Part shown: piece after piece, positions 27,321 to 59,392 of the stretch
Layout of the letters: every line of letters begins with the position of its first letter
Position numbering within the stretch: position 1 is the stretch's first letter
NCBI GenBank assembly: GCA_963693015.1
Contig: OY843748.1
Coordinates: forward strand, 3,651,059 to 3,715,058
Direction: 5' to 3'
DNA length: 64,000 nucleotides
DNA from: a bacterium
GTDB lineage: Bacteria; JAAXHH01
The notes under the pieces: model-generated
Database searches by the model: none
What the model saw: the letters and a program-made list of their open reading frames with translations, nothing else
Told to the model about the DNA's origin: nothing
Program-made: the position numbers and the translations under genes

Positions 27321-28565
27321 GTGTTCCCAGCAACATCATCCACGCAGGGTAAACCCGTGAGCGAATCCGCCAGGGACACAAGAGGATCGATTGAATCCTC
27401 CGGCAAGGCCGAATCTCCCGGTCCGCCTGGACAGCCCGGTCCGCCTGGACAGCCCGAAATCGTCGGTCCGGACCCCGCCGCGCTGACCGACGAGGAAGTG
27501 CTGACCGAGGGGCCGCAGTACAACGCGCCGCTCCCGAAGAAGCGCGTGAAGTGGTACCGATGCCGCTTGACCCGTGCGCAGTTGGCCAGCCTGAACAGAC
27601 GCAGCGATTTTCTCGGATTCGTCCAGACCCTGGGCTATCTCGCCGTACTCGCCGCGGGGGCCGGTATCGCCATCTACTCTTCCCTTAACTGGCCCTGGTA
27701 CGTAACCCTCCTGCTGGTGTTCGTCAACGGGCATTTCTGGCATTTCCTGGTAAACGGGTTTCACGAACTGGTCCACGATTCCGTCTTCAGGACCCGCTGG
27801 CTCAACCGGTTCTTCCTCCGCGTCTATTCCTTCCTGGGGTGGCATAGCCATCACCACTTCTGGGCAAGCCATACCGAACATCATAAGTATACGCTCCATC
27901 ATCCCGACGACCAGGAGGTGGTCCTGCCCGCGAAGTTCGACCTGCGTAACATGTGGAAGTGGTCGATCGTCAACTACCGCTATCCCTACGACCTGGTAAA
28001 AGGCAAACTGGCAGCTTTCGCTGGGAAGATCCCGAACGACCGATGGACGCAGGAGCTCTTTCCGGAAAGCGATCCGGAGCGGCGCCGCGCCTACACCAAC
28101 TGGGAACGGATCATGTTCACCGGGCACGTGCTGATCGCGGGCGTATCGCTGGCATACGGCCTCTGGGTCGTTCCCCTGGTCATCACCTTTCCGAAGATGT
28201 TCGGCTCATGGCTTCAGTTCCTGTGCAATGCCACGCAGCACGTGGGCCTGCAGGACGAGGTTCCCGACTACAGACTGTGCTGCAGGACGTTCTATATCAA
28301 CCCCGTCCTGCAGTTCCTGTACTGGCACATGAACTACCATACCGAGCACCACATGTACGCCGCGGTGCCTTGCTACAGGCTGGGCCGCCTGCACCGGCTC
28401 ATCAAACACGAGATGCCCTACTGCACCAGCGGCCTGTGGGAGACCTGGAAGCAGATCATCCGGATCATGGACCGCCAGCAAGTGGAACCCGACTACCAGT
28501 TCGTCGCCGAACTCCCGGCGCCCGCCGTGGCCGCGGAACGGAAGACGGTCCCGGTCGCTAATTAG
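27321..28565 (+). CDS. membrane fatty-acid desaturase/hydroxylase family protein (di-iron, His-box)
   Basis: His boxes HELVHD, HTEHHKYTLHHPDD and HTEHHMY. The start codon is uncertain (GTG at 27321 or 27357). Confidence 0.7.
   Translation: MFPATSSTQGKPVSESARDTRGSIESSGKAESPGPPGQPGPPGQPEIVGPDPAALTDEEVLTEGPQYNAPLPKKRVKWYRCRLTRAQLASLNRRSDFLGFVQTLGYLAVLAAGAGIAIYSSLNWPWYVTLLLVFVNGHFWHFLVNGFHELVHDSVFRTRWLNRFFLRVYSFLGWHSHHHFWASHTEHHKYTLHHPDDQEVVLPAKFDLRNMWKWSIVNYRYPYDLVKGKLAAFAGKIPNDRWTQELFPESDPERRRAYTNWERIMFTGHVLIAGVSLAYGLWVVPLVITFPKMFGSWLQFLCNATQHVGLQDEVPDYRLCCRTFYINPVLQFLYWHMNYHTEHHMYAAVPCYRLGRLHRLIKHEMPYCTSGLWETWKQIIRIMDRQQVEPDYQFVAELPAPAVAAERKTVPVAN
27417..27452. repeat. 18-bp x2 tandem repeat encoding PGPPGQ-PGPPGQ in the desaturase N-terminus
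   Basis: Seen directly. Confidence 0.8.
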
Positions 28566-32326: not shown

Positions 32327-32707
32327 CTACCAGGTTGCCGACGCCTTGGGATCCGGTCCGTACCGGTTTTCGCCCCTGGTTCCGTCCAGGATCAGGAACA
32401 CAAGGAGGACGATAACGCCCACGATTGGGATAAACGCGATCAGAACCCACCATCCGCTGCGGTCGGTGTCGTGCAGGCGCCGCACCGCAACGGCCAAACT
32501 GGGTAGGAATAACGCGATGCCGAGAAGCAGGGCCAATACCCCTATTTCGGCTTCTCCCGGTCTCCAGATCGATCCCAGCACCAAGTCGATCACTCCGGAG
32601 ATCAAGTACAAAACTAAGTAGAACAAAGCGAAGCACCAGTACTCCTTCCTCCTCGCCCTTCCGCTAAAAACCGCGTATTTCCTCAGAACTTCCACAAACC
32701 AGTGCAT
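32327..32707 (-). CDS. DUF805 (YhaH-like) inner-membrane protein
   Basis: RARRKEYW ... RRLHDTDRSGWW ... NRYGPDP are signature DUF805 motifs. Confidence 0.8.
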   Translation of the reverse strand: MHWFVEVLRKYAVFSGRARRKEYWCFALFYLVLYLISGVIDLVLGSIWRPGEAEIGVLALLLGIALFLPSLAVAVRRLHDTDRSGWWVLIAFIPIVGVIVLLVFLILDGTRGENRYGPDPKASATW

Positions 32708-32731
32708 GATGCCTCCTTGTTTATCCGAAGT

Positions 32732-33862
32732 TCACTGCCACAAGGGCTCCCCGTCTTCCATCTGCGACGCGAGAAACGCCTCGTTCAATTCCACGCCCAG
32801 CCCCGGCGCTTCCGTCAGGACCACGTGACCGTCCTGGATGACCGACTCCCCGGTTGCCAGTACGTCGTCCCAGGTCGGATCGTCGAAGCGGTGGTACTCC
32901 AGGACCAGAAAATTCGGCACGCTCGCGCAGACGTGGGCGTCCCCCACCGTGCTCAGCGCGCTGGAGTTGTTGTGCGGCGCGAAGGGCACGTAGTACATCT
33001 CGGCCATGTTGGCGATCTTGCGGCACTCCGACAGGCCGCCGCATTTCGAGATGTCCGGCATGATGACGTCGGCGGCCTGCTGCTGAAGCAGGTCCCGGAA
33101 TCCGTGGCGCAGATAGAGGTTCTCGCCGACGCAGATCGGCGTGCCCGTGGCATGGGTGATCTTCGCCAGGGCATCGATGTTCTCCGGCGGAACCGGTTCC
33201 TCGAGCCACAGGAGGTTCAGTGGTTCGAACTCCTGGGCCATTTTCATCCCGGCCGTCGCGTCGTACCGGCCGTGCAGGTCGATGGCCAGGTCGAGGGACG
33301 GACCGATCCCCTCCCGGATCGCGAAGGCTTCGTCCACCAGGGACCTGAGTTCGTCGGGCGTCACCGACCAGTTCCACGGGTCCAGCTTGTGGGGATTCTC
33401 CGCGTCGTCGAGGTCGAACTTGATCGCCGTGAATCCCCGCTCTCTCACCTCGGCCGCCCGCTCGTCGTAATCGGAATGGGCGCTGTCCACGTACAGCCGG
33501 ACCCGGTCCCGGAACTTGCCGCCAAGCAGTCGGTAGACCGGGAGCCCCTGCGCCTTGCCGGCGAGGTCCCAGAGGGCGACCTCGATGCCGGTAAGGGCCG
33601 AAATGGCCGTGCCTCCCGCGCCGCCCATGAAGATGTACCTTCGACGGATGAGTTCGAAACAGGCGTCCACGTCGCGGGGGTCCATGCCGATGATCATCTT
33701 CGCCATGTGCCGGGTCGACTCCCGCCATCCGCCGTCGACGTGACTGGCTTCCCCGGTGCCGTAAACCCCTTCGTCCGTGTATACGCGGACGTAATGGTAC
33801 CGGTAGGTGGTATTTCCGGATTTCACGGGAACGTCAGCGGTCTTTATGTCGGTGATCTTCAT
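32732..33862 (-). CDS. enolase-superfamily dehydratase (MR/MLE family), third paralogue
   Basis: MKITDIKTADVPV N-terminus and ...LWLEEP... barrel motifs. Confidence 0.8.
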   Translation of the reverse strand: MKITDIKTADVPVKSGNTTYRYHYVRVYTDEGVYGTGEASHVDGGWRESTRHMAKMIIGMDPRDVDACFELIRRRYIFMGGAGGTAISALTGIEVALWDLAGKAQGLPVYRLLGGKFRDRVRLYVDSAHSDYDERAAEVRERGFTAIKFDLDDAENPHKLDPWNWSVTPDELRSLVDEAFAIREGIGPSLDLAIDLHGRYDATAGMKMAQEFEPLNLLWLEEPVPPENIDALAKITHATGTPICVGENLYLRHGFRDLLQQQAADVIMPDISKCGGLSECRKIANMAEMYYVPFAPHNNSSALSTVGDAHVCASVPNFLVLEYHRFDDPTWDDVLATGESVIQDGHVVLTEAPGLGVELNEAFLASQMEDGEPLWQ

Positions 33863-34021
33863 TCGGGCTCCTGTCTGGTTTCGAATCGATCGCGGTTACG
33901 TTTCACTATACGCGGTTGCGATATCCTGCGCGGCTGCGATATCCTGCTCCCGTTGCGATACCCTGCGCGGTTGCGCGTCCGCGGCGACGAGCCCGCTGCT
34001 TCCGGCTTCCCGCGTCCCTGC

Positions 34022-36142
34022 TCAGTCACCAATCCGGACCGCCTTCAGGCGGTTATTGTAGTGATCGCTGACGAGCAGCACGTCATCCCCGTAAAAGCAA
34101 AGGCCGTGGGGTTCGTTCAGCGGCGCCTCCCGCGCATCCACCGGCTGGTCGCGGTCGCCGTAATCGCCGCTGCCGACGACCGTTTCCAGCCGGCCGTCTT
34201 CAGCGATGCGCCGCACCCGGTTGTTGCCCGAATCGGAAAAGTACAGGCGGCCCCTTTCGTCCAGGGCGAGGCCCCGGGGGGTGGAAATCGCGGCCTGCGA
34301 GGCCCTTGCACCGTCCGGGGAGCAGCCCTCTTCTCCGGTCCCGGCCACGGTGGTGATCAGCCCGTTGTCGCCGTCCACCCGGCGGATGACGTGATAGCGA
34401 TCGTCCGCGAAGTAGAGGTGGCCCGAACCGTCGACCCGAATGGCCGTGGGCGAGCCGATCCGCGCCTGGGTCGCCGGCCCTCCGTCGCCCGAATAACCCG
34501 GCAGTCCGATGCCGGCGACCGTGTCGATGATGCCGGTCTCCGCGTCGATCTTCCGGATGCGCCCGCATCCTGCGTCTCCGATATACACGTCGTCGCCAGG
34601 TCCGTGGGCGACCGAGAGGACGTGCATCAGGCACGCGCTCAGCGCCGGCCCCCCGTCGCCCTTGTCCCACTGGAAGGCCGCGCCCGCTATGTTATGGATG
34701 ACGCCCCGGCCGTCCACCCGCCGCACGTGACCGTGCCGCGTATCGGCGATGACCACCCGCCCGGCGCGGTCCACGGACACGTCGTGGGGGTTGCCCAGGT
34801 GGGCGTCGACGGCCGGCCCGCCGTCGCCGCCGTATGCCCGGGCGCCGGAACCGGCGATCGTGCCGATCAGGCCGGTATCGGGATCGATCGCCCGTATGCG
34901 CTGGTTCCACACGTCGGCGATAAGGATCGTGCCGTCGGGGCCGACCGACAATCCACCGGGTCCGTTCAGGAACCCCGCCTCGGCGGTCTCGCCGTCGTGC
35001 ACGCTCGTCCCGCCGAGGACCGTGGTAACGATCCCCGTACCGCCGTCGCATCGCCGGAGCCTGCCGGAGCAGTCGCCCCAGAACACCGTGCCGTCCGGGT
35101 CGGCGCAGATCCCCGCCTCCACGGAATTGCACCGCGTGACGACGCCGGGCAGTCCTTCCTCGCCGAAACCGGGCTCGCCCGTGCCGACCAGCGTCTGCAC
35201 GATGCCCGTTTCCCGCACCACCTTGCGCACCCGGAAGCCGTACTTCTCGCCGACGTAGAGATTGTCGCGGGCGTCCAGGCAGATGGCGTCCGGCATGAGC
35301 GTGCTCGCCTCGACGGCCGGCCCGCCGTCGCCGTTGGAGGCGCGCTGCCCGTTGCCCAACACCGTGTCGATGATTCCGGTCCGCATGTCGATCCTGCGGA
35401 CGCGGTCGTTGGAATTGTCGCACACGTACAGGTCGCCCCGCGAATCGAAGGCCAGGTGCTCCGGGTGGTAGAATCCCGCGTCGCGGGCCGGCCCGCCGTC
35501 GCCGTGGTAGCCGCCCAGGCTCAGTCCCCGGCCCGAGTACGGCCGGCTGGCCCCCCGCTCGGAGGGATAGTGCCGGGCGTGATGGCCGAAGACGGTCTCG
35601 ACGATCCCGGTCTTTGCGTCGATGCGCCGGATGTTGTTGGTCCACTCGCTGGAAAGGTACACGTCGCCGTCCCGGTCCACGGCCACGCCGCAGGTGCAGT
35701 CCAACTCCGCGTCGAGCGCCGGTCCGCCGTCGCCGCCCCGGCCGACGCGTCCGTTCCCGGCCACGCGGGTGACGACGCCGGTCTCGTAGTCGATGCGGCG
35801 GATGGTGAAGTTGCCCAGATCGGAAAGGTACAGGTTGCCGTGCCGGTCCTGGTACAGATCATGGGGGTGGCGGAACCTTGCTTCGGCGGCCGGCCCGCCG
35901 TCGCCCGAGTCGCCCGCGATCCCGTCGCCGGCAAAGGCGTGGAGGATCCCATCGCGATCGATCCGCCAGATGCGATGCCACTGGTAGTCGATCACGACCA
36001 GGTCGCCGTCGGGCCGGCGCACCACGCCCATGGGCCACCCGGCGTCGGCCTCCCGCGCGGGGATCCCATCGCGCTGGCCCACGCCGGCAATCACCAGGGC
36101 TTCTCCGAAGGGCAGGCTATTCAGTTTTTCGATGATGCGCAT
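34022..36142 (-). CDS. NHL-repeat protein (about 12 repeats, tandem six-bladed beta-propellers)
   Basis: Recurrent ...G.GxRxxxGDGGPAxxAxLxxPxGVAVDxxGNLYIAD... units about 55 aa apart. Confidence 0.7.
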   Translation of the reverse strand: MRIIEKLNSLPFGEALVIAGVGQRDGIPAREADAGWPMGVVRRPDGDLVVIDYQWHRIWRIDRDGILHAFAGDGIAGDSGDGGPAAEARFRHPHDLYQDRHGNLYLSDLGNFTIRRIDYETGVVTRVAGNGRVGRGGDGGPALDAELDCTCGVAVDRDGDVYLSSEWTNNIRRIDAKTGIVETVFGHHARHYPSERGASRPYSGRGLSLGGYHGDGGPARDAGFYHPEHLAFDSRGDLYVCDNSNDRVRRIDMRTGIIDTVLGNGQRASNGDGGPAVEASTLMPDAICLDARDNLYVGEKYGFRVRKVVRETGIVQTLVGTGEPGFGEEGLPGVVTRCNSVEAGICADPDGTVFWGDCSGRLRRCDGGTGIVTTVLGGTSVHDGETAEAGFLNGPGGLSVGPDGTILIADVWNQRIRAIDPDTGLIGTIAGSGARAYGGDGGPAVDAHLGNPHDVSVDRAGRVVIADTRHGHVRRVDGRGVIHNIAGAAFQWDKGDGGPALSACLMHVLSVAHGPGDDVYIGDAGCGRIRKIDAETGIIDTVAGIGLPGYSGDGGPATQARIGSPTAIRVDGSGHLYFADDRYHVIRRVDGDNGLITTVAGTGEEGCSPDGARASQAAISTPRGLALDERGRLYFSDSGNNRVRRIAEDGRLETVVGSGDYGDRDQPVDAREAPLNEPHGLCFYGDDVLLVSDHYNNRLKAVRIGD

Positions 36143-36411
36143 GCGTGAAGGGAGTACTCCGGCGCTTGACCTGCGTACCTGAGCGGCGGACGAGAGAGAG
36201 CCGCCGATCGCGTATACTCGTCCCGCGTATACGCATCCCGGGCAAATGAACGTGTAAGACGACGGTGTCGGCAGGCGGCCGACGAGTAGAGATGGTACAG
36301 GTTCCCCCCATGGTTTGCAACCGTTAAATGCAATTTGACAGCCGCTTCCCGACCGGTTAACATACCTCGCCGCACGGACGGTTTCGTACGCTCCCCAATG
36401 TCCCCGATCCG

Positions 36412-37650: not shown

Positions 37651-37835
37651 ATGTCCTCTGATGGCCGCCTGAACACCAAGTTGAAGTTCACGTGAGATAA
37701 TACATACCTGATAAACGACGCATTGACATCAAGTAAATCGATACCCAACCGACATGGTAGCAATCCGGCCTACTCCAACCTCTACCGTTTCTATTACTTA
37801 CACCACTTCCATCTGAACCACAGCAGGTAGTCGAA

Positions 37836-40800
37836 ATGCCGAATCACCCATTTAAGTTCAGCAACATACGCCAATGGCGCGGGTCACAGGATCAAGCGTT
37901 CGAGGAACTGTGTTATCAACTACGTGATCCAACGCCTGATAACGCCGAATTGGTCAAGACAGGGAATCCGGACGGTGGTCTGGAGTGGTATGTCACTCTG
38001 AGTAATGGAGTACAGTGGGGATGGCAGGCGAAGTTCATATTCAAAATTGACATGCTTCTTCAACACATGAAGAAATCGCTTGAGACTGTTGTTCAAAAGC
38101 GACCGAAGTGTCGTAGACTGACTTTCTGTATTCCCTTTGATCTCCCAGACGCTCCAGGAGTTAACGAGCGCAAATCAGCCAGGCAGAAATACAAGGATGC
38201 GAAGGAGCGGTGGCGTGAACGAATCCCAGGCGCTGATCGAGTCCGGATTGAACTGTGGTCGGAGGGTGATCTTTTACAGCGACTTGTCCGTAATCCGGCA
38301 CATCGAGGTATTTCATGGTTCTTCTGGGATGAAGAGGTGTTTTCCCCCGAGTGGTGTAAGCAACGCCATTTGAAGGCTGTCAATTCAGCTGGACCGCGCT
38401 ATAGTCCTGAATTGCACATTGATCTACCAGTATCATTTGCGTTTGAGGGTCTTGCACAAACCGAAGACTTTTGGGAAAGATACCGCGCTCGTCGAAATGC
38501 CGTGCTAACTGCCACAGATGATATCAACGTTTCGGGTTACACGGGTATTGGCGTCACGGGAGAGTTAAGGACACTTGTTCAATGTCTTAAAGAGTGGAGA
38601 TTCAAGGTCCCGGAAAGGGTGGGGCTACCGACACGGCTGGACCGGAATTTGTTGGTGGATCTGACGATCACCTGTCTCAAATCCGCCAATGACGCATTTC
38701 CGCAAGATCGCCCTCGTCCAAAACGAAGCGCGGCAACAAAGAAACAAATCCACAACAACGAACGCCGTAATCGACTGAAGCGTTATCTCCACGATTTGCT
38801 CGCTGCCCTGCAAGACTTTGACGATCTGTTACTGAGTAACGCGGCGAAGGCAGCAGACGCCGGATTGATACTTCTTTCGGGGGAGGCTGGACAGGGAAAG
38901 ACACATCTTTATTGTGACGTCAGCAGACGTGCGATCGAAAATGATCAACCAGCCATTCTGATCTTCGGCGGACGCATGTCCGGAAGGCACGTTTGGTCGG
39001 AAGTCGCCGAGCAGCTTGGTCTTGAGCAAGTCGGCTCGGAGTACTTACTAGGTGCGATGCAGGCGGCAGCCGAAGCCTCGAATTCACCGTTTTTGTTGTT
39101 AATCGATGCATTGAACGAGGCCGCTGATCCACACGCTTGGCGAGAGGAACTTCCCGCGCTACTTTCCGAAGTTGATCAGAATCCATGGATTTCGGTTGGT
39201 ATTTCAGTAAGGTCGTCCTACCGTCGGATTGTGCTCCCAGATTCGGGACTTACCGACGTTGCTGAAATCGAACACACTGGATTCAGGGAGCGCGAGATAG
39301 AGGCATCAGAGGTGTTTTTCAGCGCCTTCGAACTTGAGCTGCCGAGAACCCCGAGACTCGAACCTGAGTTTACGAATCCACTGTTTCTAAAGCTCTACTG
39401 TGAAAGTCTGAAAGGTCTGGGTCTAAGCGCTCCACAGGTCGGCGGGGCGCACATGAGTGAGGTTTTCGATTGGTATCTGGAGTGTAAGGAAAGCCAAATT
39501 GTGTCCCGGTTAAAACTCGATCCGGCATCCAGACCTGTAAAGGCTGCGATCAACGCATTTAGCGAAGCGCTTGCGAAAGATAACCGCGACTATCTCGCAC
39601 GCGACCGGTGCGAACAGATAATCAATGGAATCGCTCCCCAACTGTACGAATGGCCAAATACGTTATTCGGGCAATTGCTAAGCGAGGACGTACTAACCAA
39701 AGATGTAACCTGGAAAGGTGAGGAAGCGGTTCGATTTACGTATCAGCGTTTTTCCGACTATAGGGTAGTTTCTACACTCCTAAAGCCATATAACCGTGAT
39801 CAGATTCGTTTAAGGCAAGCATTAAAACCTAGAAATCGCTTAAGAAATCGGGTTTTGAAGGTGCCGCCAGGATGGATCGAGGCGTTGTCCGTACAACTAC
39901 CCGAGCGGTTTAATATCGAACTGTTGGATGCTGCCCGCTGGCACCTCAGATCGTACACTCGTTACCAATGGGATGAAGCGTTCGTACAGAGCATCTCTGT
40001 GCGTCGCCCTTCTGCCGTAACAGAAAGAACTCGTGAAGTGCTCAGTCAAGTACACCGACGCTCTGGACTCAATGAACTCGTGCTCGAAACGGTTCTGACG
40101 GTAGCGCCACAGCCGGAACACCTTCTGAATGCGAAAGCGTTACACAGATGGCTTAAGAGACTGCCAATGCCAACGCGTGACGTGGTTTGGAGTATACCTA
40201 CTTACTTCGAATTTAACCGTGGCGGGGCGCTTGACCGCCTGATTCGTTGGTCGGCCCGGGGACCATACCCGGATTGTCCGGACGAGGCGGTTGAATTGGC
40301 CGCGATTCCTTTGATCTGGACCTTCACGTCGCCAAACCGACGAATGCGGGACTACGTTACCAAATGCCTTTCGTCGCTTCTTTCTGAACGGTTGTCAGTA
40401 CTCCCAGCGCTAATACGGAAATTCGATGGCTGTAACGATCCCTATGTCGTCGAAAGACTTGCCGTGGTCTCTCATGGTGCCGTTCTGAGCGGAGGCATCT
40501 GTAATCCCCAAGCGGCCGTTTCTATAGCTGTAGGACTGAAGAAAGTCGCGTTTGCTGAAGACCAGATCCCCAACATTATCACCAGAGATGCAGTACGAGG
40601 TGTTTACGAATGGTGCATACAACACGGTCTGATTGACGACGCCCAGTATACCTCCGTACAGCCGCCCTATGGATCCGCGCCTCCCAAGACTCCACGTACC
40701 AAGGAACAGCTTGAACGTCAGTACGATCAACAGAGGTATGTAGGTGTGACAGCGAGGTGGCCGTACTCACGGGTTTTCAACTCAGTCTTTTCAGATGACT

Positions 40801-42125
40801 TCAGTTGTTATGTAATCGATTCCAAACTCCGGAATTTCAGTCATGTGTCACTGTCATCTGTAAGGCGAAATCATGGAATAGAAGAGTGGTATCCAGTGAT
40901 GCAGGCCAAGTGCTGGGTATTTGAACGCGTGCTTTCTCTCGGATGGAAGCCTGAGTTGTTCAGCGATTTCGATCGCGATTACGTTGGACATCAGGCAGGA
41001 CGTAGCGAGCACAAAATAGAGCGTTTTGGCAAGAAGTACCAGTGGATGGCTCTCCAGGAGTTGATCGCGCGGGTTGCGGACAACTTTCAAATGACAGAAA
41101 ATATCGACTATCAGGGACCGTGGCAGTTCTTCAGCCGAGACGTCGATCCCACGCTACCCCCTCCCTCTCTTGAACGTATTGAGGATGACAGTTTCAGGTT
41201 GCATTCAACCTTTTCCCCGACCAAAGCGGACCTGTGGTCTCCGCCCGGACCGAGTTATCGTCATAACGACCCGGTGGCAGGAGAAGATTGGGGGACGAAC
41301 ACTGATGATGTACCCGGATTTGAAACACTGATTAGAAATAAGGACGAAGACGGAATCCATTGGGTGGTCTTGCACGCGCACTACAACTGGGATGAAGAAA
41401 TCCCTGAGGGCAAGCACTGGTGGAGCCAGCGTCACCGTAGTTTCTGGTCTCACATTTACAGTTGGCTCGTCCATCCTGCTGATCAGCCAAAGCTTACCCG
41501 GAATCTAAATAGACATTCGTTAAAGGGACGATGGATGCCCGTAGGGCTTGAGCACGCTGACGCAGCATATCTCGGTGAATTGCCATGGGCCAAAGCGGCA
41601 AACTCGCATTCTACAACATCAGATAGGATAAGATGGCCGCATCACCCGATTCAACTCAAACATGACGTCCACCCAACCTGGATCGAGTACCTTTGGGAAG
41701 GTAACGTTCTTGACTGTTCAATAAATGATGGCGTTCACGCTTGGCTACCTACGCCTATCCTATGCACCCAAGCCAAACTCAGATGGCGACCTGGTACTCG
41801 TGAGTGGGTAACGCCTAACGGTACTACAGTGGTCCAGCACTGCGAACGCGAGCGTCACATGGTGTTGTTAGTACGTGAGTCCTGGTTGAAGAGGACAATT
41901 CGACAGACTGGTCATTCTATCGTTTTTGGCTGGCTCGGCGAAAAAAAACTGCTTGAGGCTGGATTTTCTACCGGATTGGTAGGTGATTGGACAGAGATAA
42001 ACGGAATTGCTACGCTGGTAGAAAACCAATGGGATTTTGGGAAACCACGACTGGAAAGACATATAGTCAATCGTCAGGTGGATTCATACGATACCATACA
42101 ACCGGCAGATCATACTTCTGCTTGA
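37836..42125 (+). CDS. STAND-class P-loop NTPase (NACHT-like) with N-terminal PD-(D/E)xK-like domain; candidate antiviral STAND (Avs/bNACHT-like) protein
   Basis: Walker A GEAGQGKTHL (about aa 340) and NACHT-type Walker B LLLIDALNEA (hhhhDxhxE). N-terminal GNPDGGLEWYV...QAKF is consistent with a PD-x(n)-E-x(n)-QxK nuclease core. A roughly 900-aa C-terminal helical region follows. The gene sits in a low-GC insertion. Confidence 0.65.
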   Translation: MPNHPFKFSNIRQWRGSQDQAFEELCYQLRDPTPDNAELVKTGNPDGGLEWYVTLSNGVQWGWQAKFIFKIDMLLQHMKKSLETVVQKRPKCRRLTFCIPFDLPDAPGVNERKSARQKYKDAKERWRERIPGADRVRIELWSEGDLLQRLVRNPAHRGISWFFWDEEVFSPEWCKQRHLKAVNSAGPRYSPELHIDLPVSFAFEGLAQTEDFWERYRARRNAVLTATDDINVSGYTGIGVTGELRTLVQCLKEWRFKVPERVGLPTRLDRNLLVDLTITCLKSANDAFPQDRPRPKRSAATKKQIHNNERRNRLKRYLHDLLAALQDFDDLLLSNAAKAADAGLILLSGEAGQGKTHLYCDVSRRAIENDQPAILIFGGRMSGRHVWSEVAEQLGLEQVGSEYLLGAMQAAAEASNSPFLLLIDALNEAADPHAWREELPALLSEVDQNPWISVGISVRSSYRRIVLPDSGLTDVAEIEHTGFREREIEASEVFFSAFELELPRTPRLEPEFTNPLFLKLYCESLKGLGLSAPQVGGAHMSEVFDWYLECKESQIVSRLKLDPASRPVKAAINAFSEALAKDNRDYLARDRCEQIINGIAPQLYEWPNTLFGQLLSEDVLTKDVTWKGEEAVRFTYQRFSDYRVVSTLLKPYNRDQIRLRQALKPRNRLRNRVLKVPPGWIEALSVQLPERFNIELLDAARWHLRSYTRYQWDEAFVQSISVRRPSAVTERTREVLSQVHRRSGLNELVLETVLTVAPQPEHLLNAKALHRWLKRLPMPTRDVVWSIPTYFEFNRGGALDRLIRWSARGPYPDCPDEAVELAAIPLIWTFTSPNRRMRDYVTKCLSSLLSERLSVLPALIRKFDGCNDPYVVERLAVVSHGAVLSGGICNPQAAVSIAVGLKKVAFAEDQIPNIITRDAVRGVYEWCIQHGLIDDAQYTSVQPPYGSAPPKTPRTKEQLERQYDQQRYVGVTARWPYSRVFNSVFSDDFSCYVIDSKLRNFSHVSLSSVRRNHGIEEWYPVMQAKCWVFERVLSLGWKPELFSDFDRDYVGHQAGRSEHKIERFGKKYQWMALQELIARVADNFQMTENIDYQGPWQFFSRDVDPTLPPPSLERIEDDSFRLHSTFSPTKADLWSPPGPSYRHNDPVAGEDWGTNTDDVPGFETLIRNKDEDGIHWVVLHAHYNWDEEIPEGKHWWSQRHRSFWSHIYSWLVHPADQPKLTRNLNRHSLKGRWMPVGLEHADAAYLGELPWAKAANSHSTTSDRIRWPHHPIQLKHDVHPTWIEYLWEGNVLDCSINDGVHAWLPTPILCTQAKLRWRPGTREWVTPNGTTVVQHCERERHMVLLVRESWLKRTIRQTGHSIVFGWLGEKKLLEAGFSTGLVGDWTEINGIATLVENQWDFGKPRLERHIVNRQVDSYDTIQPADHTSA

Positions 42126-42291
42126 TTGTAAGGGAAAGCAACCGAGAGACTTAGTTCGCTATAAATGATGAAATTGACTTCGAGAATACAATCTCCTCTT
42201 CGACTGAAGAACATAAGACAAAGAAGAAATGCTCCAGCGCAATCTCAGACTTTTTAAAGTACTATCGGGTCTAAAGTAAAGGGGCAGTCCG

Positions 42292-43470
42292 ATGCCATTC
42301 ATAGAACGCCTTCGCTTAGGCGGCCTGCTGTCTTTTCCTCCGGACATGGAGTTCTTCGACTTACGCCCTCTGAACGTCCTGATTGGTCCGAACGCGTCGG
42401 GGAAATCCAACTTCATAGAGGCGCTGGAACTGCTACGGGCCTTGCCTGTGGACTTCGCCGCCGCGATCCGGGACGGCGGCGGTGCGGAAGAGTGGTTGTG
42501 GAAAGGCGATCATCCACCCGCCCCCGCGGCAATAGAAGTGGAAACCGGTCCCGGCATGGAAACCGGTCGACATTTAGAGTATCGTCTGTCGTTCACCGCA
42601 GCGGGCCAGCGGGTCCGGATCCTCGACGAGGCCATCGAAGAGGCGCCTGCACAACAGGCATCCGAGCCGTACTTCCACTACACGTTTCAACAAGGACGCC
42701 CGGTAATCAATGTTCGAACGCCCGGTGGACAAGTATCCGAGAGACAGGTAAAGTGGGATAATCCTTCGCTGGATCAATCCGTTCTTGCACAAAGAAAAGA
42801 CGCTTATCGTTATCCGGAACTTTACTGGCTTGGTTTGCGATTCCAATCGATCCAGACGTTCCGGGAATGGACGTTTGGTCGTTACGGCTCGCTCCGACGG
42901 CCGCAACGAGCCGATCTCCCGGAGAACCGGCTACTTCCCGATTCTGGTAATCTTCCGTTGGTCCTCAACCACATTGAGCATACGACCGGCGTGGTCTTCA
43001 ATGAACATCTGAAACGGTTCTTCCCCCGATTCGAGCGGATGTCCACGTCGATCTCGGGGGGCACCGTGCATTTCTACCTGCACGAATCCGGCTTCGGCAC
43101 GCCGATCCCCGCAACGCGGCTGTCCGACGGCACCATCAGATTCATCGCGCTGCTGGCCACTCTGCTTACCCCGACGCCTCCATCGCTGGTATGCATCGAG
43201 GAACCCGAACTCGGACTGCATCCCGACGCAGTGGCGCTGCTCGCCGACCTGCTGGTTGAAGCCTCCGACCGGATGCAACTCGTGATCACTACGCATTCCG
43301 ATGCCCTGGTGTCGGCGCTGACCAATCAACCAGAGGCCATCGTCGCCTGTGAACGCCCCGGGGCCGCCACCGAGTTGCGCCGCCTCGACGCGGAACGCCT
43401 GGCCGGTTGGCTTGAGAAGTATCAACTAGGCGACCTGTGGCGCATGGGCGAGATCGGGGCAAACCCTTGA
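42292..43470 (+). CDS. AAA_21/ABC-type ATPase (OLD/PtuA/AriA-like defence ATPase family)
   Basis: Walker A LIGPNASGKSNFIEAL, Walker B LVCIEEPELGLHP, and a split ABC ATPase with a long insertion. Confidence 0.75.
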   Translation: MPFIERLRLGGLLSFPPDMEFFDLRPLNVLIGPNASGKSNFIEALELLRALPVDFAAAIRDGGGAEEWLWKGDHPPAPAAIEVETGPGMETGRHLEYRLSFTAAGQRVRILDEAIEEAPAQQASEPYFHYTFQQGRPVINVRTPGGQVSERQVKWDNPSLDQSVLAQRKDAYRYPELYWLGLRFQSIQTFREWTFGRYGSLRRPQRADLPENRLLPDSGNLPLVLNHIEHTTGVVFNEHLKRFFPRFERMSTSISGGTVHFYLHESGFGTPIPATRLSDGTIRFIALLATLLTPTPPSLVCIEEPELGLHPDAVALLADLLVEASDRMQLVITTHSDALVSALTNQPEAIVACERPGAATELRRLDAERLAGWLEKYQLGDLWRMGEIGANP

Positions 43471-44105
43471 GGAGGAGTGTCAGCATCTATCTTGAAGGCG
43501 GAGGCGATACTTCTGGTACGAGGGCGGCGCTCCGCCATGGAATGGATACGTTCCTTCAGCCGCTGAAGCAAGCGGCCAGGGACAAGGCGCTACGTTGGAA
43601 ACTGGTCGCCTGCGGTACGCGCAGGGAAGCTTACAAAGGGTTTCGAAACGCTATACACGATCTTGAAAGAGATGAGGTCGTCGTCTTACTGGTGGACGCG
43701 GAAGGACCGGTAAACCGGTCGGCGTCCGAACACCTGCGAAACCGCGATGGTTGGGATTTCAGCCTTGCTTCAGACTACGGGGTTCAACCTGACGACGTGG
43801 TACATCTTATGGTGGAGACGATGGAAACCTGGATCGTGGCGGATCCGCACACGTTAGGCGTTTACTACGGCCAGGGATTCAGGACAAATGCACTACCCAA
43901 AGCGCAGAACCTTGAAACCGTTACCAGGATTGATGTCGCGCACAGTTTGAAGGAGGCGACAAGGCAGACCCGGAAAGGATCATATCACAAGATCAAACAC
44001 GCGAGCGACCTTTTGCGGCGGATCGACGTGGAAAAAGTAAAGCGACGCTGTCGTCACTGCCGGTTGCTGTTCGAGAGACTCGGGCCACTGGTCGACGCGG
44101 CCTGA
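43437..44105 (+). CDS. DUF4276-family protein (partner of AAA_21 ATPases)
   Basis: SIYLEGGGD near the N-terminus matches the family (i-hVEG..D signature). The more likely start is the TTG at 43467, overlapping the ATPase stop (TTGA), which suggests translational coupling. Confidence 0.6.
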   Translation: MAHGRDRGKPLRRSVSIYLEGGGDTSGTRAALRHGMDTFLQPLKQAARDKALRWKLVACGTRREAYKGFRNAIHDLERDEVVVLLVDAEGPVNRSASEHLRNRDGWDFSLASDYGVQPDDVVHLMVETMETWIVADPHTLGVYYGQGFRTNALPKAQNLETVTRIDVAHSLKEATRQTRKGSYHKIKHASDLLRRIDVEKVKRRCRHCRLLFERLGPLVDAA

Positions 44106-44372
44106 AATCCTGGATCAGGGGGCTTTGGTACCGTCAGCAGGTCGGCGCGGGCCAAGTCCAAAGTGAACGTGTTCCGAAGTCGTTTTCTCCTGCATCCTGT
44201 CGCCCGCCTCATGTTTGCTTCCACTTCGGATCGTGCAGCCCCCGTTGTCACACGGTGTCACACAACCGGGAAGGTCGGATGGATGGGCGGAAACCCCCGT
44301 TTCCGTCACTTTGATGACGATCAGGCACTGGCTCATGATCCTTGCCCCTTCGCAATCTGCTGAAAACGTTAC

Positions 44373-44399
44373 TTGACCATCCGCGATTTCATCTATAAT
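44373..44399 (+). promoter_or_regulatory. sigma70-like promoter candidate (TTGACC - 15 nt - TATAAT) upstream of the halogenase/RiPP operon
   Basis: Perfect -10 hexamer 37 nt upstream of ATG 44436. The RBS AAAGGA is 8 nt before the start. The spacer is short (15 nt). Confidence 0.4.
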
Positions 44400-44435
44400 T
44401 AGAAAAACTGACCGATACCTGCGAAAGGACGTGGG

Positions 44436-45716
44436 ATGATACGGCCGGGCGCTGAATCGTTGCGGAAGATCGCGGTCATCGGACAGGGAACCGCGGGCTC
44501 CCTGGCGGCCGCCAGTGTAACGCGTCTTCTCTCCGACGACGACCACGAACTGCATCACATCTACGACTCGCGCATTCCGGTCATCGGCGTGGGCGAAGGC
44601 AGTTGGCCGAGTCTGGTACAGGAACTGCACCAGCTGACGAATCTGCCCCACGCAACCGTCCAGCGGCGCTTGAACGGAACCCGCAAGTACGGCGTCGCAT
44701 TCGAGGGATGGGGGTGCCGCAGCCGGGATTTCACCCACTACTTCACGCCGCAACAGGTATCCTATGCCTACCATTTGTCCGCCGACGTGCTGGCGGAGCT
44801 GTTGCGCGAAAGCACGCGCGCGCGCCACGTCGACGCGAACGTGCGCGACATCAAAACCCTGGAGGACGGCGCGCAAGTCGAGTTCGACGGCCGGGCGCCG
44901 GAACGCTACGACCTGGTCTTCGATGCGCGCGGATTCCCGAAAGAACTCCATCCCGACCGGCACATCGACATTTCCTTCATTCCCACCAATACGGCCGTCA
45001 TCCGGCGCTGCCCGGCCGTCATCGCGGAAGAGCGGGACGGGCCGGTCGTGAAGCATACCTACACCCGTGCCGTTGCACGTCCCCACGGCTGGATATTCGT
45101 CATTCCGCTGACGGTGCACACCTCCTACGGGTACATCTTCAACCGCGATATATCCAGCCTCGAAGAAGTCGAATCGGACTTCGACGCCTTCCTTGAAGCC
45201 GATGGCGTGCCGGAATTCGAGCAGCGCGCCGTCATTCCGTTTCCCAACTTCATCCATCGCCGGATCTACGATGGCGCCGTGGCCCGCGTTGGCAACGCGG
45301 CGGCCTTCATGGAGCCCCTGGAGGCCACGGCGATCGTATCTGCCCAGCTGCAAATCGGGATGGTGTTGCAGACGCGTCTGAACCGGCCGGCAGAGCATCT
45401 CGCGCCCGACGCGCCGGTGGTCAACCGGTTTCTCGTCGACAACATGCTCTGCTACGGCCTGTTCGTCGGCTGGCACTATTGCCGTGGCTCCAGGTACGAC
45501 ACCACGTTCTGGCGTCACGCCCGAAACGACGTGTGGCCCCGTCACCGCGACGCGGCAGCGCCCGAGGCGGTGGATTGCGCCGCACTCGGCAAATTCGATG
45601 GGATGTTCGAGCTACTGAATCAACCGGTCATCGACAAATCGGATTGGGACCGGATGTGCGCGGTACCGCTTACCAGCTACGCCCAGGTGTCCCAGGGGCT
45701 GGGCTGCCAAAAGTGA
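44436..45716 (+). CDS. flavin-dependent halogenase (tryptophan-halogenase family, PF04820-like)
   Basis: N-terminal KIAVIGQGTAGSLAA (GxGxxG) and the GWIFVIPL motif (the WxWxIP signature of FADH2-dependent halogenases). Size is about 426 aa. Confidence 0.8.
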   Translation: MIRPGAESLRKIAVIGQGTAGSLAAASVTRLLSDDDHELHHIYDSRIPVIGVGEGSWPSLVQELHQLTNLPHATVQRRLNGTRKYGVAFEGWGCRSRDFTHYFTPQQVSYAYHLSADVLAELLRESTRARHVDANVRDIKTLEDGAQVEFDGRAPERYDLVFDARGFPKELHPDRHIDISFIPTNTAVIRRCPAVIAEERDGPVVKHTYTRAVARPHGWIFVIPLTVHTSYGYIFNRDISSLEEVESDFDAFLEADGVPEFEQRAVIPFPNFIHRRIYDGAVARVGNAAAFMEPLEATAIVSAQLQIGMVLQTRLNRPAEHLAPDAPVVNRFLVDNMLCYGLFVGWHYCRGSRYDTTFWRHARNDVWPRHRDAAAPEAVDCAALGKFDGMFELLNQPVIDKSDWDRMCAVPLTSYAQVSQGLGCQK

Positions 45717-45809
45717 CATTACTTGATTCGGGATGCGTATAACTTCATATTATATATCTAAATAAAGTAGTTTTGACTTGCTCGACAACCGGGAGGCATT
45801 GCTACAGTC

Positions 45810-46514
45810 GTGTTCAACAATCCATTAAACTCATTCCATGATACCGTTGCCGAAGCGAAGGAAGAGCGGGAACAGCTCGACCGGTTGCTGACGATTTCCA
45901 CGCCGCGGGAGCGTCTGCTCGTCGTCGCGATCGCGGTTGTGCTGTGCGTCACGCTGGCATGGCTTTTCTATGGCAGCGTAGCGCATAGTATTGCGGTGGA
46001 CGGCGTACTGTCCGCATCCGGGCTAGTCGAAGCCCCGTCCGGTCAAGTCGAAGTCCCGGCCGAGCGGGGCGAAAACGGGTCCGTTCAAGTCGAAGCCCCT
46101 GCCGGGCAAGGCGAAAAATCGACCGTTCAAGTCGAAGCCCCTGCCGGGCAAGGCGAAAAATCGACCGTTCAAGTCGAAGCCCCGGCCGAAGGCAGCCGGT
46201 CCGTGCAGGCCCTCGCCTGGATCGACGGCGGTATCGCGCCGCAGATCGAAGCCGGGATGCCGGTGGTGATCGAGCCGGATCCGGCAGATGGAGAACCCGG
46301 CGCGCTGGGCGGAACGGTCCGGGCGATCTCCGCCGTGCCCTTTGCCGGGGCGCTGGCGGCCTTCGAATCCGGGGCGCCGGCGTCCGTGCACCGTATCGAT
46401 ATCGCCCTCGAAGAGAGTCTTGATCCGGATTCCCTTGCGGGCAGGAAATGCCGGATCGTCATCGAGCTGGGCAGGCAATCTCCGATCACGCTGTTTCGAA
46501 TGAGGCGGCCATAG
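45810..46514 (+). CDS. HlyD-like membrane-fusion/secretion protein, unusually short (NHLM bacteriocin-system type)
   Basis: Cytoplasmic N-terminus, a single TM (LLVVAIAVVLCVTLAWLFYG) and a C-terminal beta-rich region. The coiled-coil region is replaced by VQVEAPAGQGEKST repeats. Start is a GTG. Confidence 0.55.
   Translation: MFNNPLNSFHDTVAEAKEEREQLDRLLTISTPRERLLVVAIAVVLCVTLAWLFYGSVAHSIAVDGVLSASGLVEAPSGQVEVPAERGENGSVQVEAPAGQGEKSTVQVEAPAGQGEKSTVQVEAPAEGSRSVQALAWIDGGIAPQIEAGMPVVIEPDPADGEPGALGGTVRAISAVPFAGALAAFESGAPASVHRIDIALEESLDPDSLAGRKCRIVIELGRQSPITLFRMRRP
46039..46206. repeat. 42-bp tandem repeat x4 (two perfect copies) encoding (S)VQVEAPAGQGEKST
   Basis: Seen directly. Perfect copies are 46081-46122 and 46123-46164. 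Confidence 0.85.
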
Positions 46515-46588
46515 GATGTCGAAGCGCATATCCACGGCCAGGCGTCGAAGCGCCAGGTCCTCCAGAACTCGAATGAGGCAACCATAGG

Positions 46589-48802
46589 ATGTCGACGAGC
46601 ACCTCCAGGGGAGCCAGAGGCAAGGCCTCCTCGGATAAATCAGACCAGCGGGTAACCACGCCGATTCTGTTGCAGATGCACGCTTCAGAATGCGGCGCCG
46701 CCTGTCTGGGCATCGTACTGGCCCACTTCGGGAGATGGGTACCGCTTACCGAACTGCGCGAGAAATGCGAGGTGAGCCGGGACGGCAGCAGCGCCGCAAG
46801 CATCCTGCGTGCCTCCAGGCACTATGGGCTCGAATGCAACGGGCTCAGCGTACGCGTCGATCAACTGCACATGCTGCCGTTGCCCCTGATCCTGTTCTGG
46901 CAGTTCAGCCATTTCGTCGTCCTCGAGGGATTCGATGGCCGTAACTTCTACCTCAACGACCCTGCCACGGGACGCCGCCGCCTTTCCGCCGAAGAGTTCG
47001 AGTCGGGCTACAGCGGCATAGCGCTTCGCTTCAAGCGCGGCAAAGACTTCGAGTCCGGTGGCGAGCAGCCCGACTTGTTCCGGCAACTGGGCGCCTTGCT
47101 CGCCGGATCGTGGAGATCGCTTGCCGGGGTGTTTGCCTGCGGACTCATGTTGACGTTGCTGACGCTGATCATTCCCGCGTCGATCGGTGCCTTCGTCGAC
47201 GACGTCATGGAAACGCAAGGGGCCTGGGGCGGTTTGGTGACCGCCCTGCTTGGCGGCGGCGCCCTGGTATACGTCCTTTCCCTGCTCAAGAACCGGTTCC
47301 TCAAGCGGCTCGCGGTCAGGGTGTCGGTGACCGGCTACAGCCGCGGGATGTCGCGGCTGCTGCGGTTGCCGGTGGAGTTTTTCGAACACAGGCTGACGGG
47401 CGATCTGACCGACCGGGTCTCGTCCACCGACCGGATCGCGAAGAACCTGGCGGACCAGTTCCTGGTGCTCATCATCGACGTGGCCATGAGCCTGGTGTTC
47501 CTCGCGGCGATGTTCGCCTTCGACGTCCTGCTCACGCTGATCGTGCTTTTGCTGGCGCTGCTGCACGGTCTGCTGGCCCACTTCCTCAACGCCCTTCGGG
47601 CCGTTCGAAGTCAGGCGATGCGGCGCGAGCAGGGACTGCTGATCGGCCTCGGCATGCAGATGCTGAGTCACGCCGACAATCTGCGCATGACGGGCGCGGA
47701 CGATCGGTTTTTCTCGCGCTGGAGCGGTCAACAGGCCCGCGAACTGCGCGCGCGCCAGCTCTATGCCGAACTGGGCGCCGTCAATACCTCGCTTCCGGGC
47801 CTGGTCGACGCCCTGCGCAGCGCGGCGATACTCGCCATCGGCGGCAGCATGGTCCTGAACGGAGCCATGACCCTGGGGACGCTGGTCGCCTTCTACATCC
47901 TGGCGGAGATGTTCCTGACGCCCGTCGAGCGCTTCCTGGCCTTCGCCGAAAACCGCCAGGCGCTCGAAACCGATCTGCAACGACTCGAGGACGTCTCCAG
48001 GACCGATGAAGATCCCGTTTTCAGCCGCAGAAGCCAGGAGTCGGAATCGGTCCCCACGTTCAACGGCCGGCTCCAACTCGCGGGCCAGCTCGAACTGCGG
48101 AACGTCACCTTCGGTTTCAACAGGAGCCGGCCGCCCCTGATAAAGGACTTCAACCTCGTGATCAAGCCGGGACAGCGGGTCGCCGTGGTCGGTCCCAGCG
48201 GTTCCGGCAAGTCGACGCTGGCGCGGCTGGTTTCGGGGGTCTATCAGCCCTGGTCGGGCGAAATCCTGTTCGACGAGGGCCATCTGCGGGATCAGATCCC
48301 GGAGGAAGTGCTGCGGCAGTCCATATCCATGGTGGATCAGGAGGTCGTGCTCTTCTCCGCGTCCCTGCGCGACAATATCACGCTGTGGAACCCGGCCGTT
48401 CCGGATGAAGTCCTCTTCGCCGCGACGCGGGACGCCCGGATCCACGACGAAATCCTGGTCAGACCGCAGGGATACGCGTCCCTCGTCGAAGAAGGCGGGG
48501 CGAATTTCAGCGGCGGCCAGCGGCAACGGCTGGAAATCGCCCGCGCGCTGGTGGGGAACCCGACGGTGCTCATTCTGGACGAGGCCACCAGCGCCCTCGA
48601 TGCCGCGACGGAGGAATACGTCGACGATGCCCTGCGGCGTCGCGGCGTCACCTGCCTGATCGTGGCGCACCGGCTGAGCACCGTGCGGGACTGCGATGAG
48701 ATCATCGTGCTCGACAAAGGCGCCACCGTGCAACGCGGCACGCACGACGAGTTGATCGCGGATCGGAACGGCGCCTACTACAACCTGGTCAGATCGAACT
48801 GA
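46589..48802 (+). CDS. peptidase-C39 domain ABC exporter (double-glycine leader-cleaving bacteriocin/RiPP transporter)
   Basis: N-terminal QMHASECGAACLGIVL (C39 catalytic Cys) and HFVVLEGFDG (His). Six TM helices, Walker A GPSGSGKST and signature LSGGQRQRLEIARAL. Confidence 0.85.
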   Translation: MSTSTSRGARGKASSDKSDQRVTTPILLQMHASECGAACLGIVLAHFGRWVPLTELREKCEVSRDGSSAASILRASRHYGLECNGLSVRVDQLHMLPLPLILFWQFSHFVVLEGFDGRNFYLNDPATGRRRLSAEEFESGYSGIALRFKRGKDFESGGEQPDLFRQLGALLAGSWRSLAGVFACGLMLTLLTLIIPASIGAFVDDVMETQGAWGGLVTALLGGGALVYVLSLLKNRFLKRLAVRVSVTGYSRGMSRLLRLPVEFFEHRLTGDLTDRVSSTDRIAKNLADQFLVLIIDVAMSLVFLAAMFAFDVLLTLIVLLLALLHGLLAHFLNALRAVRSQAMRREQGLLIGLGMQMLSHADNLRMTGADDRFFSRWSGQQARELRARQLYAELGAVNTSLPGLVDALRSAAILAIGGSMVLNGAMTLGTLVAFYILAEMFLTPVERFLAFAENRQALETDLQRLEDVSRTDEDPVFSRRSQESESVPTFNGRLQLAGQLELRNVTFGFNRSRPPLIKDFNLVIKPGQRVAVVGPSGSGKSTLARLVSGVYQPWSGEILFDEGHLRDQIPEEVLRQSISMVDQEVVLFSASLRDNITLWNPAVPDEVLFAATRDARIHDEILVRPQGYASLVEEGGANFSGGQRQRLEIARALVGNPTVLILDEATSALDAATEEYVDDALRRRGVTCLIVAHRLSTVRDCDEIIVLDKGATVQRGTHDELIADRNGAYYNLVRSN

Positions 48803-48830
48803 CGCGGCAAACGGAGCCGGAATACAGACC

Positions 48831-51797: not shown

Positions 51798-51851
51798 TCC
51801 GATTACGAGGATGACGGCCTGGCGGCAAACGCGCGCCTTCGGCCCGGACCC

Positions 51852-53168: not shown

Positions 53169-53253
53169 ACGTGAATCCTGCCGGTCCGGGAATCCCGCGA
53201 CGAGATAACTTCCCGCGTAGGTGTTCGATTATGCTTACTAAGGAGGTGTTACC

Positions 53254-58139: not shown

Positions 58140-58148
58140 GGAGGCGGA

Positions 58149-59267
58149 ATGAATATCGACGAAGCCGTTCTGCTTACCCAGGATCGTCTCGCCGAAGAGG
58201 GCGGCACGCTGGCGGAATTGCTCGGGCGCTTCAGGAGCCGGGTTTCACCGAGCCTTATCGGGGAGCGGGAATGGACGCTCATACTGGAACGCGCAAAGCA
58301 ACTCCCCATCTCCATGGGCGCCCAGCCCTTCGGCTTTGAATTGCCGCTCCATGACAGCCGGCCCGTGGCGGATTTCGGCGTCTCGCTGGCGAGCGGGAAC
58401 CGGTCAGGCAATTTCTATGAAGCGCGGGCGCGAACGGACGAGACGGACGAGACCGCAAGTGCGGTCGGTCGGCTGTTCGCGGAAATGGAAGCCCGGGACT
58501 CGCCGCTGCGGGAGATCGTGGGACGCAAGCTGATGCTGGAGTATGACATCGGCTCGGCGCACGGGAACAAGGCGTCGCTGCCTGGGTTGTTCCTGCGGCC
58601 CAACGAACGCACCTTGTCCGGTGGCGGAGGCCTTGCGCGTGACGTCGGGATCGTGGTTGACGCCCTGGTTTCCAGCGTCGGCTGGGAAAGGATCGACGCC
58701 GAACGGAAAAACGTCGAGCGGGTCTACCTGGCGCAGCCCGACGACACGCGCATGGATTCCTTCGGCGTATTCCCGTCCCGGGAACGAACGATCCGCCTGG
58801 CGGTCATGGGCTTCAACGGACAGGAGGCCCTCTGTTCTTATCTGGAAGCCACCGACTGGCCGGGGCGTATTTCGGCTGTCGAGTCCGTGATTTCACGCTT
58901 GAAGGAACGGGCGGATATCGTGAGTACGGGTGTGAATATCGACGTGCGGGCAGACGGACTGGGGCCGACGCTCGGCCTTACGCCCATCGTCAAGCAGAGA
59001 TATACGAATGACAGCCGCTACTGGATCGACGGCCAGACCGATTGGGAGCCTATCCTCGAAGCCCTGAGGTATGAGGACTGCGTCGTACCGGAGAAGCTTG
59101 CGGCGCTCGGCGACTGGGCGTCGAAACCGACCACGCTGTTTGGCCGTACCGGCCCCTTCGTCATGTTACGCGGCATACATCACGTAAAGCTGGTCATATC
59201 CGGAAACAGACTGGAGAAGGTCAAGGCCTATCTCTACATGGTGCTTTCCGGAGCGCTCTCGATTTAA
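58149..59267 (+). CDS. hypothetical protein (372 aa), last gene of the RiPP-like operon
   Basis: Protein-like composition, 10-bp gap to the YcaO gene. No motif recognised by eye. Confidence 0.5.
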   Translation: MNIDEAVLLTQDRLAEEGGTLAELLGRFRSRVSPSLIGEREWTLILERAKQLPISMGAQPFGFELPLHDSRPVADFGVSLASGNRSGNFYEARARTDETDETASAVGRLFAEMEARDSPLREIVGRKLMLEYDIGSAHGNKASLPGLFLRPNERTLSGGGGLARDVGIVVDALVSSVGWERIDAERKNVERVYLAQPDDTRMDSFGVFPSRERTIRLAVMGFNGQEALCSYLEATDWPGRISAVESVISRLKERADIVSTGVNIDVRADGLGPTLGLTPIVKQRYTNDSRYWIDGQTDWEPILEALRYEDCVVPEKLAALGDWASKPTTLFGRTGPFVMLRGIHHVKLVISGNRLEKVKAYLYMVLSGALSI

Positions 59268-59298
59268 GCGCTTCAAGCGCAACTTCGGGAACCCGACG

Positions 59299-59337: not shown

Positions 59338-59392
59338 GACCTGCTCAATCATGCGAACGCCGGGCGTCCGCATGCGAACCGGTGTCTCTGGC

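Follow-up and report, generated by a model that had tools for sequence, protein, structure and literature searches.

A putative stand-alone Avs2 STAND NTPase with a predicted Mrr-like nuclease effector in a low-GC bacterial defence island

Introduction

Avs2 has been described as the commonest and most widespread family among the Avs proteins. All three of its members studied so far recognise terminase, with three different effectors, and published work names Mrr-like nucleases as the commonest Avs2 effector. Here we analyse a stretch of 64,000 nucleotides from a bacterium of the lineage JAAXHH01 (contig OY843748.1 of assembly GCA_963693015.1, forward-strand positions 3,651,059 to 3,715,058; hereafter the window) and, within it, the gene avs2, whose product is a previously unnamed and uncharacterized member of this known family. 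We consider it highly probable that avs2 encodes a stand-alone Avs2 STAND NTPase with an Mrr-like nuclease effector that would answer phage terminase with abortive infection, a mechanism proposed by homology.

In the published layout of KpAvs2, an N-terminal Mrr nuclease is followed by a helical bundle, the STAND NTPase and a long sensor of the Avs2 type; the mutants K71A (nuclease) and K337A (Walker A) lose defence, DNA is degraded on infection and the outcome is abortive infection. The helical bundle binds Avap2, which is encoded in the same operon as the radical S-adenosylmethionine (SAM) protein Avap1 and is required against some phages (PMC11564622). EcAvs2 (PDB 9O4E; PMC13601566) defends as a single gene, has a helical extension between effector and NTPase, and forms a flat tetramer with terminase bound; its effector is uncharacterized, looks non-enzymatic and is invisible in the cryogenic electron microscopy density. 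In VcAvs2-trypsin-MBL, activation requires no more of the terminase than its ATPase domain, and a trypsin-like protease serves as the effector, cleaving a separate metallo-β-lactamase (MBL) nuclease (bioRxiv 10.64898/2026.08.25.746987). An Mrr nuclease domain is also found in EcAvs4 (PDB 8DGF), the sensor of which differs and recognises the phage portal protein.

Assignment to the Avs2 family

An initial annotation, made by a model from the nucleotide sequence, had proposed an antiviral Avs-type STAND protein with an N-terminal PD-(D/E)xK domain, a central P-loop and a long C-terminal sensor, and this proposal is borne out by our profile, structure and conservation tests. Its remark that the protein resembles no Avs type that could be named was, however, wrong. 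In PADLOC-DB, which it had suggested as a check, all six Avs2 models match the window protein (E=0 down to 5e-142), led by PDLC02164 (E=0, 1133 bits), and PDLC02162 spans residues 6-1374, that is, the full length. No Avs1, Avs3, Avs4 or Avs5 model matched at E<=0.1 in the PADLOC search, and we rejected an identity with any of these four on the absence of profile matches. A phmmer search against all PDB sequences returned chain A of 9o4e (EcAvs2) as its sole match (E=1.2e-125), with an alignment that is collinear across residues 169-1013 and 1018-1374 of the window protein, and the NCBIfam model NF041813 ('AVAST type 2 anti-phage system protein Avs2') reaches E=3.5e-246, with its best stretch at residues 183-1009. 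On these sequence comparisons, membership of the Avs2 family appears unambiguous, as does the identity of the NTPase and sensor with those of Avs2. The tripartite layout of the family is present, with an N-terminal effector, a STAND NTPase with a helical insertion, and a C-terminal sensor of TPR repeats together with a C-terminal domain (CTD).

The protein had been called NACHT-like. Both Walker motifs are present (GEAGQGKT at residues 349-356 and LLLIDALNEA at 420-429), although the further claim that the Walker B motif is diagnostic of NACHT was not established: the Pfam NACHT model (PF05729) scores 21.1 bits (E=3e-4) at residues 341-488, below its gathering cut-off of 26.7, next to a likewise sub-threshold score of 23.6 bits for AAA_22. 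The Walker B region reads D424-A-L-N-E; the canonical NACHT form is D-[GAS]-h-D-E. Because the Pfam threshold for NACHT is missed and AAA_22 scores about as well, 'STAND NTPase' would be the safer label for the protein.

The gene itself is real. Its frame and all of the motifs quoted in the initial annotation are in place, and a Shine-Dalgarno-like AGGTAG lies 7 nt 5' of the start codon. A chance open reading frame (ORF) is ruled out because 360 proteins are homologous to the product at E<=1e-10, the best 120 of them being 1117-1538 aa and mostly about 1400 aa long, and because the ratio of non-synonymous to synonymous substitution rates (dN/dS) is low, at 0.18-0.19 overall by the Nei-Gojobori method in comparison with two relatives whose proteins are 77-82% identical. 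The gene is thus under purifying selection, which varies by region: dN/dS is lowest in the nuclease domain, at 0.07-0.11, and reaches 0.17-0.25 in the sensor (TPR and CTD) and the helical module.

Domain anatomy and the predicted nuclease

The initial annotation had drawn a single N-terminal domain of about 330 aa. A nuclease core is indeed predicted there, but AlphaFold2 models, built with homologue alignments, divide this region into a compact module of about 165 aa (residues 1-165) and a helical module of about 170 aa (residues ~170-335; helices at 171-188, 210-227, 241-257, 270-286 and 302-332). Modelled alone, residues 1-165 reach a predicted local distance difference test (pLDDT) score of 88.7 and a predicted template modelling (pTM) score of 0.84, and are confidently predicted to form a restriction-endonuclease core fold of the order alpha-beta-beta-beta-alpha-beta (helix 18-28; strands 38-42, 50-54 and 60-65; helix 71-88; strand 92-98). 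Of the motif residues PD (45-46), EWY (50-52) and QAK (64-66), D46 precedes the second strand in the model and Q64-x-K66 lies at the end of the third. The D...QxK variant of the motif occurs in MspJI-type and Mrr-like enzymes.

The catalytic-type residues are kept on alignment with homologues rather than lost. Across 78 sequences, whose median identity to the window protein is 36%, D46, G48, Q64 and K66 never vary; E23 is shared by 77, and position 50 holds E in 75 sequences and D in the other 3. When 1.84 billion proteins were searched with a profile of the N-terminal region, 2160 cluster representatives matched, 819 of which reach E<=1e-30; in the best 150 of the 2160, the longer proteins (~1400-1690 aa) have the nuclease at their N terminus and the remainder are shorter fragments. 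A word-indexed homologue search with residues 1-170 found short gene fragments only. In PADLOC, the alignment to four of the six Avs2 models starts at residues 6-7, and these models therefore include the same effector.

Comparison with characterized Avs proteins

KpAvs2 has the same layout as the window protein, and its K71 and K337 correspond to K66 and K355 here, a correspondence that we take from the published description and not from an alignment; the output of KpAvs2, non-specific DNA degradation and abortive infection, would also be expected here. EcAvs2 is homologous and collinear in the helical extension, NTPase, TPR and CTD, over residues 169-1374. Its effector, however, is different, such that residues 1-168 of the window protein do not align, and it has about 90 additional residues between TPR and CTD. 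With VcAvs2, the window protein shares the chassis of an ATPase with a unique insertion, TPR and CTD; here, however, nuclease and sensor form one polypeptide, and avs2 has no MBL gene nearby in the window. Comparison with the Mrr nuclease domain of EcAvs4 gives just 13-16% sequence identity to the nuclease of the window protein, and Avs4 profiles do not match.

We transferred the terminase and bridging-ATP contacts of EcAvs2 (PMC13601566) to the window protein through HMMER alignments, in which residues ~650-1003 and 1094-1449 of 9o4e are aligned with the sensor region. One contact, E1462, falls outside the alignment; among the eight others, five are identical (EcAvs2 D981, R1132, W1266, E1362 and E1444, corresponding to D988, R1056, W1196, E1288 and E1369 here). 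This pattern fits the EcAvs2 binding mode without proving it. Pfam found nothing at E<=10 in residues 1001-1429.

A variable island with a changing set of neighbours

The gene avs2 sits in a variable defence hotspot of foreign composition. GC content is ~0.51 over 38-42 kb of the window versus 0.62-0.70 in the flanks; the drop coincides with avs2 and sets in directly after the stop codon of an aminotransferase gene at 37650. At third codon positions (GC3), the value is 0.50 in avs2 versus 0.80-0.87 in the neighbouring aminotransferase, halogenase and ABC genes. The initial annotation had already recognised this low-GC island and the defence-like pair next to avs2, which PADLOC identifies as HEC-01A and HEC-01B (Table 1), with Pfam matches to AAA_21 and DUF4276 that are both above their cut-offs. 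Proteins at least 90% identical to this pair are encoded on several other contigs.

The left edge of the island retains a trace of Hma (helicase-methylase-ATPase) genes. In a blastn comparison with the relative L002, whose Avs2 is 77% identical, homology starts at window position 37677 (L002 7836), 19 bp before the stop codon of hmaC. By tblastn, no Hma coding sequence was found elsewhere in the window, and therefore the Hma genes have been lost here; the 19-bp remnant marks the left island breakpoint, a deletion or replacement beside the aminotransferase gene. The L002 island itself holds HmaB (DUF1156 methylase), an AAA_21 gene with a 210-aa ORF, an AAA_21/DUF4276 pair, HmaC (DUF499), Avs2 and Fic, and its right flank is that of the window: halogenase, small ORF, C39-ABC exporter and ABC transporter. 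Between its Avs2 and Fic genes (L002 12621-12713) a relic of the window's HEC-01A/B junction (43394-43489) survives over 96 bp at 79% identity, which suggests that the arrangement of Avs2 with HEC-01 is ancestral and was overwritten in L002.

In a second relative, L003 (Avs2 82% identical), HmaC again precedes Avs2. The 18.5 kb at 42050-60580 of the window, which hold HEC-01 and an apparent biosynthetic cluster, are absent at L003 8701-8748, such that Avs2 abuts a sodium:solute symporter gene, the counterpart of window 60570-62021. A DUF772 transposase fragment (59817-60308, - strand) is found at the right edge of this extra stretch in the window.

Across the seven relatives examined, Avs2 lies inside or directly beside Hma genes in four: L002, L003, L006 (59% identical), where it falls within another Hma locus, and L001, from an Acidimicrobiia metagenome-assembled genome (MAG), where a 30%-identical Avs2 is encoded directly downstream of hmaC. 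In the other three, it follows a type I restriction-modification (RM) system (L004), stands alone as a single-gene insertion between the isc operon and a peptidase S49 gene (L005, 60% identical), or is found among small unknown genes (L007). By comparison with these loci, avs2 appears to behave as an autonomous single-gene defence module that is often lodged in Hma loci. Alongside Avs2 and Hma, the L002 and L006 loci contain AAA_21 ATPase genes, a Fic gene and genes of toxin-antitoxin type.

Searches for island boundaries in the window found neither tRNA genes nor direct or inverted repeats that would convincingly flank the island; there were no Rfam matches, and promoter and terminator matches showed no excess over the shuffled expectation.

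Directly to the right of the defence genes, an apparent biosynthetic cluster for a ribosomally synthesized and post-translationally modified peptide (RiPP) or bacteriocin extends over 44436-59267 (Table 1). Two genes in the window have a fatty-acid-desaturase domain, at 27321-28565 and 53254-55653. Further to the left, a 1148-aa ORF (32702-36148, + strand) has no match in Pfam, PADLOC or NCBIfam and overlaps, on the opposite strand, a 706-aa NHL/teneurin-repeat beta-propeller gene (34022-36142, - strand; TEN_NHL, E=9e-55); the latter is well supported, and we rejected the former as a gene, as a probable by-product of the 70% GC content.

Table 1. Coordinates of avs2, its predicted domains and the neighbouring genes within the window
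Feature	Position	Strand	Details
avs2 gene	37836..42125	+	1429-aa product; uninterrupted ORF with ATG start; stop codon inside the coordinates
Predicted Mrr-like PD-(D/E)xK nuclease effector, residues 1-165	37836..38330	+	Catalytic candidates E23, D46, E50, Q64-A-K66
Avs2-specific helical extension, residues ~166-340	38331..38855	+	AlphaFold2 helices; 9o4e alignment starts at 169
STAND NTPase, residues ~341-650	38856..39785	+	Walker motifs and collinearity with the EcAvs2 ATPase; C-terminal limit approximate
Walker A	38880-38903	+	K355
Walker B	39093-39122	+	D424
Sensor, TPR-like repeats then CTD, residues ~651-1429	39786..42122	+	9o4e alignment
hmaC (DUF499 ATPase) 3'-end remnant	37677..37695	+	19 bp including stop codon; blastn versus L002 7836-7854
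HEC-01A AAA_21 ATPase, island neighbour outside Avs2	42292..43470	+	PADLOC PDLC04177 E=8.1e-151; Pfam AAA_21 E=1.3e-38; GC3 0.67
HEC-01B DUF4276 protein, island neighbour outside Avs2	43437..44105	+	PADLOC PDLC04201 E=3.6e-66; Pfam DUF4276 E=7.7e-22; GC3 0.63
Trp-halogenase-like gene	44436-45716		
234-aa ORF	45810-46514		Without family match
C39-peptidase ABC exporter	46589-48802		
Second ABC transporter	48831-51797		
Protein with nitrile-hydratase-alpha-like segment	51852-53168		
Fatty-acid-desaturase/GlnE-like fusion	53254-55653		Nucleotidyltransferase segment
YcaO cyclodehydratase	55650-58139		With winged helix-turn-helix

Proposed mechanism and alternative explanations

We establish here that the protein belongs to the Avs2 family, how its domains are arranged, that its catalytic residues are conserved and that the gene is under purifying selection; for the mechanism, we draw on EcAvs2, KpAvs2 and VcAvs2. 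In an uninfected cell, Avs2 would be a latent monomer. On infection, its C-terminal TPR and CTD sensor would clamp the ATPase domain of the large subunit of the phage terminase, probably with the participation of a bridging ATP, and the ATP-bound STAND module would then drive tetramerisation. The tetramer would gather four N-terminal nuclease domains and so complete the active sites formed by D46, E50, Q64 and K66; the active nuclease would cut double-stranded DNA without sequence specificity, and the cell would die or arrest before phage progeny are released.

Several observations weigh against this reading, at the level of the effector, the family model and the sensor. Pfam searches with residues 1-180 and 1-335 gave nothing at E<=10, a hidden Markov model of the N-terminal alignment returned no nuclease from the PDB sequences, its matches being confined to the helical part of EcAvs2, and Foldseek support for the nuclease is weak (E=4.5e-3). 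As sequence profiles give no link to Mrr and the structural match is weak, the assignment is drawn from predicted fold and motif, and 'Mrr-like' is meant in that sense rather than as membership of Pfam Mrr_cat. NF041813 scores 820.3 bits, under its curated equivalog cut-off of 1000. This shortfall is a property of the cut-off of one model and no biological feature; automatic annotation may therefore leave such proteins unnamed, and the missed cut-off may be the reason why the one homologue with a name in its source record, from a Gemmatimonadota MAG and 59% identical, is called 'ATP-binding protein'. Three of the eight alignable EcAvs2 contacts, all with bridging ATP or terminase and ATP, are changed in the window protein (T1128 to H1052, R1130 to A1054 and E1364 to N1290); EcAvs2 itself tolerates single mutations of its contacts, which are redundant (PMC13601566). 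Furthermore, the range of KpAvs2 extends to proteins other than terminase, and against some phages it depends on an accessory protein; no radical-SAM or Avap-like accessory genes adjoin avs2 in the window. Terminase sensing, tetramerisation and DNA degradation would all extend to the window protein and its clade by homology.

One alternative concerns what the protein senses. Its trigger might not be, or not only be, terminase, and might instead involve small proteins like Ksap or ATPase-fold proteins like vs.8 of T4, or require a partner docked on the helical bundle. In vivo, Ksap1 and Ksap2 activate KpAvs2, which also depends on the bundle-binding Avap2 (PMC11564622), and vs.8 activates EcAvs2 (PMC13601566); the dN/dS of the sensor and helical module, above that of the nuclease domain, points the same way as the three substitutions. 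Yet terminase is recognised by every one of the three studied Avs2 proteins irrespective of effector, the sensor remains collinear with EcAvs2 to residue 1374 with most contacts retained, and neither a radical-SAM nor an Avap-like gene lies next to avs2. We regard a non-terminase trigger or an obligate partner as unlikely.

The neighbourhood raises a separate question, namely, whether avs2 acts alone. Adjacency to Hma genes in four of seven relatives, including the distant Acidimicrobiia homologue, together with the hmaC remnant and the HEC-01 pair in the window, could indicate that Avs2 is a component of an Hma or HEC locus and cooperates here with HEC-01. However, in one of the remaining relatives Avs2 adjoins a type I RM system, in another it stands by itself between housekeeping genes, and in the third its neighbours are small, unrelated genes; EcAvs2 protects as a single gene, and the GC3 of the HEC-01 genes (0.63-0.67) differs from that of avs2 (0.50), which suggests a separate origin. 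Hma loci are, moreover, known to carry embedded unrelated defence genes, which is the basis of the 'HEC' names in PADLOC. A non-autonomous Avs2 is therefore very unlikely in our assessment; that the adjacency of this Avs2 clade to Hma reflects functional coupling rather than shared island residence, for example through an Hma or HEC component docking on the helical bundle as Avap2 does in KpAvs2, seems to us slightly less remote, although still improbable. The loss of the upstream Hma genes and the NCBIfam score might also be taken as signs of decay, leaving an inactive relic, or the protein could be a STAND regulator outside defence. Against decay stand the intact frame of 1429 codons, the retention of all catalytic and Walker residues and the dN/dS of 0.19, and we rejected a pseudogene on the frame and this ratio; against a regulator, Pfam found no DNA-binding or regulatory output domain, and a non-defence role was rejected with the nuclease as the sole output domain. 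The probability that we leave to either of these is close to negligible.

Discussion

Beyond annotation, the locus has modest uses. The window and the L002 and L003 loci illustrate how a defence hotspot is remodelled, through the loss of Hma, the swapping of HEC-01 and Fic, and a RiPP cluster that is present at some loci and missing from others. Should the improbable coupling to Hma or HEC prove true, the sensor of this clade, in which three bridging-ATP contacts are altered, might respond to another phage signal. Furthermore, there is no Mrr-type Avs2 structure among the matches of our PDB sequence search; since the solved EcAvs2 has another effector, unseen in density, a structure of an Mrr-type Avs2 could show how the nucleases assemble on the flat tetramer. 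The significance of the finding lies mainly in annotation: it adds to the family an uncharacterized Avs2 from an environmental lineage, with what would be the family's commonest effector.

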